This document shows, piece after piece, positions 62,089 through 62,140 of a DNA stretch of 64,000 nucleotides (position 1 is the stretch's first letter; each line of letters begins with the position of its first letter). The position numbers were made by a program, and so were the translations under genes. The notes under the pieces were generated by a model. The model made no database searches, was not told the origin of the DNA, and worked only from the letters and a program-made list of their open reading frames with translations. Location of the stretch: assembly GCA_000165345.1 (NCBI GenBank), contig CM000433.1:32001-96000 (forward strand), read 5' to 3'.

Positions 62089-62140
62089 AATATTTAAATT
62101 TCAAATTAGGCGCCAGCGCCTAATTTGAAATTTAAATATT
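62089..62140. repeat. 52-bp near-perfect inverted repeat (25-nt arms around a CA centre) with a GGCGCC-AGCGCC core
   Basis: AATATTTAAATTTCAAATTAGGCGC-CA-GCGCCTAATTTGAAATTTAAATATT. The arms are exact reverse complements. It lies about 95 bp upstream of the TMA7 ATG and about 360 bp upstream of the metallothionein-like gene. Confidence 0.8.

Follow-up and report, generated by a model that had tools for sequence, protein, structure and literature searches.

Genomic context of the palindrome

The window, i.e. the whole stretch of DNA analysed here, comprises 64 kb of chromosome 4 of Cryptosporidium parvum. Its GC content varies between 16 and 32%, about 71% of it is coding, and its ORFs are long and intron-poor; a tRNA scan of the window returned no genes. 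The locus studied consists of three genes and the spacer between the first two of them (Table 1). TMA7 was identified by a match to a Pfam family, while the divergently oriented ORF on its left is called metallothionein-like (MT-like) by virtue of its Cys-rich composition only, as a Pfam search with its 56 residues gave no match. With this distinction, both gene assignments of an earlier note on this DNA can be maintained. The third gene encodes a CDC50/LEM3 protein, and the locus carrying it maps to about 112–121 kb of CP044418.1.

The divergent spacer between the start codons of TMA7 and the MT-like gene measures 506 bp. The right end of the palindrome is 92 bp from the TMA7 ATG, in agreement with the setting described earlier, and the centre lies 118 bp upstream of this ATG and 388 bp from the ATG of the MT-like gene.

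Table 1. Positions in the 64-kb window of the palindrome, its parts, the flanking genes and the other GGCGCC sites
Feature	Position	Strand	Remarks
GGCGCC site (TTTAGGCGCCAATTT)	2407–2412	.	Intergenic
GGCGCC site	18459–18464	.	Divergent spacer; 322 and 538 bp from two ATGs
GGCGCC site (ATAGGCGCCAATTTTT)	24375–24380	.	554 bp upstream of ATG 24929
GGCGCC site (GGCGCCAAAA)	35973–35978	.	409 bp upstream of minus-strand ATG 35564
Divergent Cys-rich ORF	61556–61726	-	56 aa; metallothionein-like by composition alone
Palindrome	62089–62140	.	25-nt perfect arms and 2-nt centre; perfect form in C. parvum only
Left AT-rich arm	62089–62108	.	Holds cluster of C. parvum-derived changes; exact reverse complement of right arm
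GC core GGCGCCAGCGCC	62109–62120	.	12 bp; two head-to-head E2F/DP-type sites (motif identity from PMC3734150)
Centre dinucleotide CA	62114–62115	.	Window, IOWA-ATCC, C. hominis
Centre TG (reverse complement of CA)	62114–62115	.	Second C. parvum lineage
Centre CG	62114–62115	.	C. tyzzeri, C. meleagridis, L001, C. canis
Right AT-rich arm	62121–62140	.	Largely ancestral; differs from C. hominis and C. tyzzeri only at 62121 and 62130
TMA7	62233–62391	+	52 aa; Pfam PF09072, 33.4 bits (cut-off 27)
CDC50/LEM3 protein ORF	62611–63807	-	Same sequence as in C. parvum Iowa II and IOWA-ATCC entries

Structure of the palindrome

The sequence at 62089–62140 reads AATATTTAAATTTCAAATTAGGCGC-CA-GCGCCTAATTTGAAATTTAAATATT, and its two 25-nt arms are exactly complementary about the 2-nt centre, as had been noted before. 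A repeat finder, which returned it as the top inverted repeat, extended the arms imperfectly to 31 nt at 94%. The earlier claim that this is the longest perfect palindrome in the window was borne out by an exhaustive scan, in which the runner-up was an (AT)n microsatellite (41521–41560) of 20 nt. The longest arms obtained in 30 first-order Markov simulations of the window were 10–15 nt, and the arms of 25 nt far exceed this chance expectation. Folded as single-stranded DNA, the palindrome has a predicted energy of -23.8 kcal/mol, compared to -6.7 +/- 2.0 kcal/mol for shuffled sequences (z = -8.6), corresponding to a very stable predicted stem of 24–25 bp.

The whole palindrome is single-copy in the 64-kb window, and no further copy of an arm or of the core was found there when up to three mismatches were allowed. 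A search of metagenomes with an 18-mer consisting of an arm segment and half of the core gave 30 single matches on unrelated contigs with 23–61% GC. As none of these extends past the 18-mer, they were dismissed as dispersed copies and attributed to chance; they are uninformative on the C. parvum genome.

An E2F-type double site in the GC core

The motif most over-represented upstream of C. parvum genes is the E2F/DP-like 5'-TGGCGCCA-3' with core [C/G]GCGC[G/C], which has also been found upstream of ribosomal-protein genes (PMC3734150). The GC core of the palindrome is made up of GGCGCC (62109–62114) and GCGCC (62116–62120), and thus carries this hexamer, with T-rich sequence on the 5' side and A-rich sequence on the 3' side. 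The flanks are TTT/AAA in C. tyzzeri, and TTA/TAA in C. parvum, where both sides of the core therefore differ from the canonical TTT/AAA of the Cryptosporidium motif. The resemblance to this motif further includes an intergenic, promoter-proximal position within a divergent spacer and the nature of the gene, as TMA7 is translation-related like the reported ribosomal-protein targets. The TMA7 core is unlike the published motif in joining two head-to-head sites in a single unit of 12 bp, which is found genus-wide (see below).

The ancestral form of the core, TTTGGCGCC joined directly to GGCGCCAAA, also resembles the canonical eukaryotic E2F-DP site, given as TTTSGCGCSAAA by Zheng et al. (1999) as quoted in PMC3734150, since it consists of two inverted copies of the canonical half-consensus TTTGGCGC. 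It differs from the canonical site in the distance between the centres of the two hexamers, which is just 6 bp.

GGCGCC occurs five times in the window, where 0.13 occurrences are expected. All five sites are intergenic and none falls in the 71% of the window that is coding; over these 64 kb the hexamer is thus enriched between genes and depleted within them. The two E2F-like half sites proposed in the earlier note accordingly correspond to a published Cryptosporidium motif with an exclusively intergenic distribution in the window. One of the other four, the well-formed site at 2407–2412, is flanked on both sides by 3' ends, those of the convergent long ORFs 231–2309 (plus strand) and 2633–5026 (minus strand), and is upstream of no long ORF. 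This site could point to an unannotated transcript or to an internal promoter of the type described in polycistrons (bioRxiv 10.1101/2025.01.17.633476).

A second E2F-like motif, 5'-GGCGGG-3', was reported by Oberstaller et al. 2013 (PMC3734150), and 9 of its 11 occurrences in the window (GGCGGG or CCCGCC) are intergenic. Boxes of this type are located at 6849, 17464, 34814, 38805, 40670, 41164, 41274, 48501 and 59031.

Conservation of the core in orthologous spacers

Syntenic loci with the MT-like, TMA7 and CDC50 genes were collected by exact-protein look-ups of TMA7, CDC50 and its homologues. They came from a number of C. parvum assemblies and from C. hominis, C. tyzzeri, C. meleagridis, the Cryptosporidium sample L001 (DRR848573), chipmunk genotype I, C. 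ubiquitum, C. canis, C. felis and C. ryanae. All ten Cryptosporidium species compared carry the double site at the orthologous position (Table 2), albeit with one degenerate half in C. ubiquitum and with the halves 8 nt apart in C. felis. In an alignment of eight species, 8 of the 12 core columns (CGC..GCGCC) are invariant, while the arms diverge; the double site was additionally found in C. felis and C. ryanae. The distance from the core centre to the TMA7 ATG is 114–124 bp in seven taxa; C. ubiquitum has 154 bp and C. canis 185 bp.

Table 2. Core sequence and number of complementary arm positions (out of the 20 outside the 12-bp core) in orthologous TMA7 spacers
Taxon	Core	Arm pairs
C. parvum (window)	GGCGCCAGCGCC	20/20
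C. parvum (second lineage)	GGCGCTGGCGCC	20/20
C. hominis	GGCGCCAGCGCC	13/20
C. tyzzeri	GGCGCCGGCGCC (perfect 12-bp palindrome)	13/20
L001	GGCGCCGGCGCC	10/20
C. ubiquitum	ACCGCTGGCGCC	10/20
C. meleagridis	GGCGCCGGCGCC	7/20
C. canis	GGCGCCGGCGCC	6/20
Chipmunk genotype I	GGCGCTGGCGCC	5/20
C. felis	TGTGGCGC-N8-GCGCCACA	
C. ryanae	GGCGCGGGCGCC	

Within the palindrome, the 12-bp core is the sole part that is conserved across species, as judged from these alignments. C. ryanae yielded no detectable MT-like homologue, yet the double site is present upstream of TMA7 in this species, which ties the site to TMA7; this gene is most likely the one that it serves. Published observations bear on such a role: E2F is the dominant motif in ATAC-seq peaks of sporozoites, and bidirectional promoters make up more than half of these peaks according to their annotation (bioRxiv 10.1101/2025.01.17.633476). 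Taking these genome-wide data together with motif identity and conservation, we infer that the core most likely recruits Cryptosporidium E2F/DP factors, which would open and activate the TMA7 promoter and possibly the bidirectional one. The dimeric transcription-factor site suggested earlier is plausible for the GC core, a pair of E2F-like sites in a divergent promoter spacer that has been kept in ten species. We consider this genus-wide double site a well-footprinted test case for the proposed E2F/DP-dominated control of promoters in Cryptosporidium.

The GC core is among the three best-conserved blocks of the spacer. Other conserved stretches are TTATCTCTTTTTCAAT at 62048–62063, which includes a GATA-like TTATCT; the conserved portion TGTAATTAT of the palindrome TTACGTAA at 62153–62160; and TTTACTGCTAATAGCAG and TGAATTGGAC near the MT-like gene, at about 61800–61850. 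Possibly these represent further promoter elements or the region of transcription start.

L001 shares about 93% identity with C. parvum, C. hominis and C. tyzzeri; the value for C. meleagridis is 90%, and L001 is distinct from this species. Its TMA7 protein is identical, while its CDC50 protein of 395 aa has a sequence that is absent from the protein collection. An assignment of L001 to C. meleagridis was ruled out, as the genuine C. meleagridis loci (L016 and L017) differ from it.

The perfect arms are specific to C. parvum

Outside the core, complementarity between the arms is complete in both lineages of C. parvum and drops to 13 of 20 positions in C. hominis and C. tyzzeri and further in the other species (Table 2). 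Comparison of orthologous spacers thus gives a divided answer on the element as it was originally described: the core is retained in ten species, and the long perfect arms are found in C. parvum only. A 52-bp functional unit that includes the AT-rich arms is consequently not upheld. What the outgroups C. hominis and C. tyzzeri do have is an imperfect inverted repeat, i.e. a quasi-palindrome.

Spacer length is nearly constant (506 bp in C. parvum, 502 bp in C. hominis and 509 bp in L001), and the arms align base-for-base with orthologous DNA, from which it follows that the palindrome arose in place and not by insertion. A MITE-like or otherwise transposon-derived element, either a TIR-TIR junction or a dispersed repeat that entered the spacer, would account for the perfect TIR-like architecture and the AT-rich ends. 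Given the position-for-position match of both arms to orthologous sequence, and the lack of a second copy of either part in the 64-kb window with up to three mismatches allowed, we regard this origin as extremely improbable, which supports the earlier note, where a MITE-like repeat was set against a promoter element.

The very stable predicted stem of 24–25 bp could alternatively point to a structured RNA, acting either as a translational control hairpin within the TMA7 5'UTR or as a small hairpin RNA; RNA hairpins are among the known products of template switching (PMC8794818). Such a role appears very unlikely: a scan of the whole window against Rfam at the gathering threshold found no families, and the stem is missing in the sister species. 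Cryptosporidium is also not known to have RNAi machinery. Moreover, a perfect 25-bp stem in the 5'UTR would strongly block scanning on the mRNA of a translation-machinery gene, and transcription is for this reason more likely to start downstream of the stem.

AT-rich palindromes occur at some replication origins, and E2F sites are located near some metazoan origins, which would fit the origin-like element that had been listed among the candidate roles. The palindrome is not conserved, though, and no origins are known to be defined in Cryptosporidium; an origin-like role is very improbable.

Clustered substitutions in the arms

Substitutions were polarised over 3 kb with C. hominis and C. tyzzeri, each of which is 96.6% identical to C. 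parvum. The 52 bp of the palindrome hold 6 of the 46 polarised C. parvum-derived substitutions, where 0.81 would be expected (Poisson P = 2e-4), and five derived substitutions fall within only 15 bp, from 62094 to 62108 (P = 5e-6). Transversions account for five of the six derived changes inside the palindrome, compared to 6 of 40 outside (Fisher P = 0.002). Altogether, the cluster in C. parvum comprises 6–8 derived changes, nearly all of them transversions.

In the left arm, the changes at 62094, 62095, 62103 and 62108 are certain and those at 62104 and 62105 are probable, the polarisation of the latter two being ambiguous as L001 has an A like C. parvum. Each of the four certain changes produced the base complementary to the right arm, and the other two probably did so as well. 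At the partner positions 62124–62126, 62134 and 62135, C. parvum has kept the bases found in C. hominis and C. tyzzeri. Hence, there is an excess of changes confined to the arms, and the derived bases in the left arm are the reverse complement of an ancestral right-arm template, as expected for template switching. The right arm itself has two derived changes. At 62130 a T>A change now pairs with the ancestral T at 62099, i.e. it was corrected towards the left arm, while at index 7 both sides changed (62121, A>T; 62108, T>A), converting a T.A into an A.T pair. Without exception, the derived bases in the palindrome form Watson-Crick pairs with the opposite arm, and the changes raise or keep complementarity.

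A clustered and transversion-rich set of changes that raises complementarity fits template switching, and not a long element under selection. When the template is switched between imperfect inverted repeats, two outcomes are known, homogenisation of the arms and inversion of the spacer (PMC8604942, PMC5453318, PMC8794818). The multinucleotide cluster that turned the left arm into the exact reverse complement of the right arm is similar to the products of template switching and quasi-palindrome correction described previously (PMC5453318, PMC8794818). It is unlike a single template switch (Loytynoja & Goldman 2017; Monttinen & Loytynoja 2022) in that two changes in the right arm are left over. 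These changes, at 62121 and 62130, require either point mutations or a second event in the opposite direction; since the right arm has changed too, including at index 7, at least three events or a bidirectional correction must be invoked. The most economical history compatible with the alignments would be two point mutations in the right arm followed by one right-to-left copying event, with hairpin mismatch correction in both directions as the alternative.

Selection on the whole 52-bp palindrome in C. parvum would offer a different explanation for the perfect arms. The selected unit could be a core promoter that works symmetrically in both directions, in which TATA-like TTTAAATA boxes mirror each other on either side of the E2F sites; a cruciform bound by an architectural protein would be another example. 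In line with this, 25 of 25 arm positions are perfectly paired in all C. parvum assemblies examined, both arms changed with an increase in pairing, including the double (compensatory) change at index 7, and the predicted stability of the hairpin is very high. Diversity in C. parvum is so low (two other SNPs in 3 kb), however, that uniform arms say nothing on constraint, and only 13 of 20 pairs are found in the closest species, C. hominis and C. tyzzeri, at an overall identity of 96.6%. In addition, the TATA-like runs were already present in the ancestral arms, and the tight, transversion-rich cluster fits a copying mechanism and not stepwise selection. Altogether, we consider selection on the whole palindrome unlikely.

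Two forms of the central dinucleotide

A second C. parvum lineage, represented by NCBI assembly GCA_048859185.1 and by Logan contigs of DRR729233 and linked to CDC50 variant P0103, has TG instead of CA at the centre of the palindrome. The two lineages differ at four positions in 3,000 aligned bp, and two of these are the adjacent centre bases, which are exact reverse complements. An assembly artefact was ruled out as the source of TG, considering the asymmetric flanks and its presence both in a chromosome-level NCBI assembly and in independent short-read contigs. Two Logan short-read contigs stop at or near the palindrome, one (L004) starting at window position 62081 and the other (L020) ending at 62139. 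Their ends may reflect difficulties in assembly or sequencing, or mixed CA and TG orientations in those samples.

Inverting the whole palindrome yields exactly the change from CA to TG, and TG is most simply derived by inversion because C. hominis has CA, in the same orientation. Judging from the sequences compared, the difference between the lineages is quite probably an inversion of the spacer. The same pair of states could have arisen by two independent transitions from an ancestral CG; a spacer of 2 nt is compatible with both histories, and we consider the transitions possible but rather doubtful. The probable inversion of the spacer between the perfect arms in the second C. parvum lineage has a parallel in yeast, where both homogenisation of inverted repeats and spacer inversion were described (PMC8604942).

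Comparable events have been observed elsewhere. Hairpin-loop micro-inversions flanked by inverted repeats are well known from chloroplast non-coding DNA. Microinversions have also been described between human and chimpanzee (PMC8755829), and the probable occurrence of a short spacer in both orientations, between perfect arms, among close lineages of C. parvum is similar to these. The C. parvum case is unlike them in that its spacer measures 2 nt, so that inversion is formally inseparable from a double substitution.

A more far-reaching reading would be that the palindrome is an actively flipping element, in which a hairpin or cruciform formed in vivo recurrently inverts the asymmetric core. 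If so, the switch from GGCGCC-A-GCGCC to GGCGC-T-GGCGCC would move the sole complete GGCGCC from the side of the MT-like gene to the side of TMA7, and lineages or even subpopulations of C. parvum would inherit different E2F occupancies and a different balance of divergent transcription. The element would then resemble an invertible promoter switch, on a micro scale and in a eukaryote. We judge recurrent flipping to be highly improbable.

Proposed origin and function of the palindrome

We propose that the palindrome combines a functional E2F double-site core with arms that are a by-product of template switching, and consider this joint reading likely. The palindromic double site and its weakly self-complementary flanks, as still seen in C. 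hominis and C. tyzzeri with 13 of 20 pairs, would have formed a quasi-palindrome. Either a template switch at replication or correction of mismatches in a hairpin stem would then, in the C. parvum lineage, have rewritten the left arm on the template of the right arm, to which it became the reverse complement, resulting in the perfect arms of 25 nt. The same process would later have inverted the 2-nt centre from CA to TG in one C. parvum lineage. The arms would accordingly have no required function and represent a neutral by-product.

Both the motif class and the mutational mechanism are already known, and the TMA7 locus is a new instance of them. A literature search for a described promoter palindrome in Cryptosporidium gave nothing relevant, and no paper on the TMA7 locus was found. 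The palindrome reveals no new kind of element; it is mechanistically ordinary and lineage-specific. Its interest lies in providing a clean, polarised case of arm homogenisation by template switching, probably together with spacer inversion, in an apicomplexan promoter. Events of this kind mimic clusters of point mutations and 'compensatory' changes, and hence have a bearing on SNP-based typing and on estimates of the divergence between C. parvum and C. hominis.

Other features of the window

A stretch of about 5 kb (approximately 38100–43400) has the lowest GC content of the window (0.16–0.19) and few long ORFs; it includes the (AT)20 microsatellite at 41521–41560 and three CCCGCC boxes. On the plus strand between 59222 and 61136, two overlapping ORFs (59222–60199 and 60105–61136), with ambiguous bases (X in the translation) running between them, correspond to a single gene of 632–646 aa in other assemblies, with a mucin-like poly-Ser/poly-Thr tract. 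A single N is present at window position 61242.

The MT-like gene is shortened in C. parvum, encoding 56 aa compared to 73 aa, and the MT-like ORFs of other species encode 70–73 aa. C. parvum has a run of nine A residues (TGCAAAAAAAAATAA, at about 61556–61570) where C. hominis and C. tyzzeri have eight. This run constitutes a +1 frameshift, as a result of which the product of 56 aa is without the C-terminal ...KCTSEKPTETESKCCKC. The run of nine A residues is identical across four independent C. parvum assemblies.
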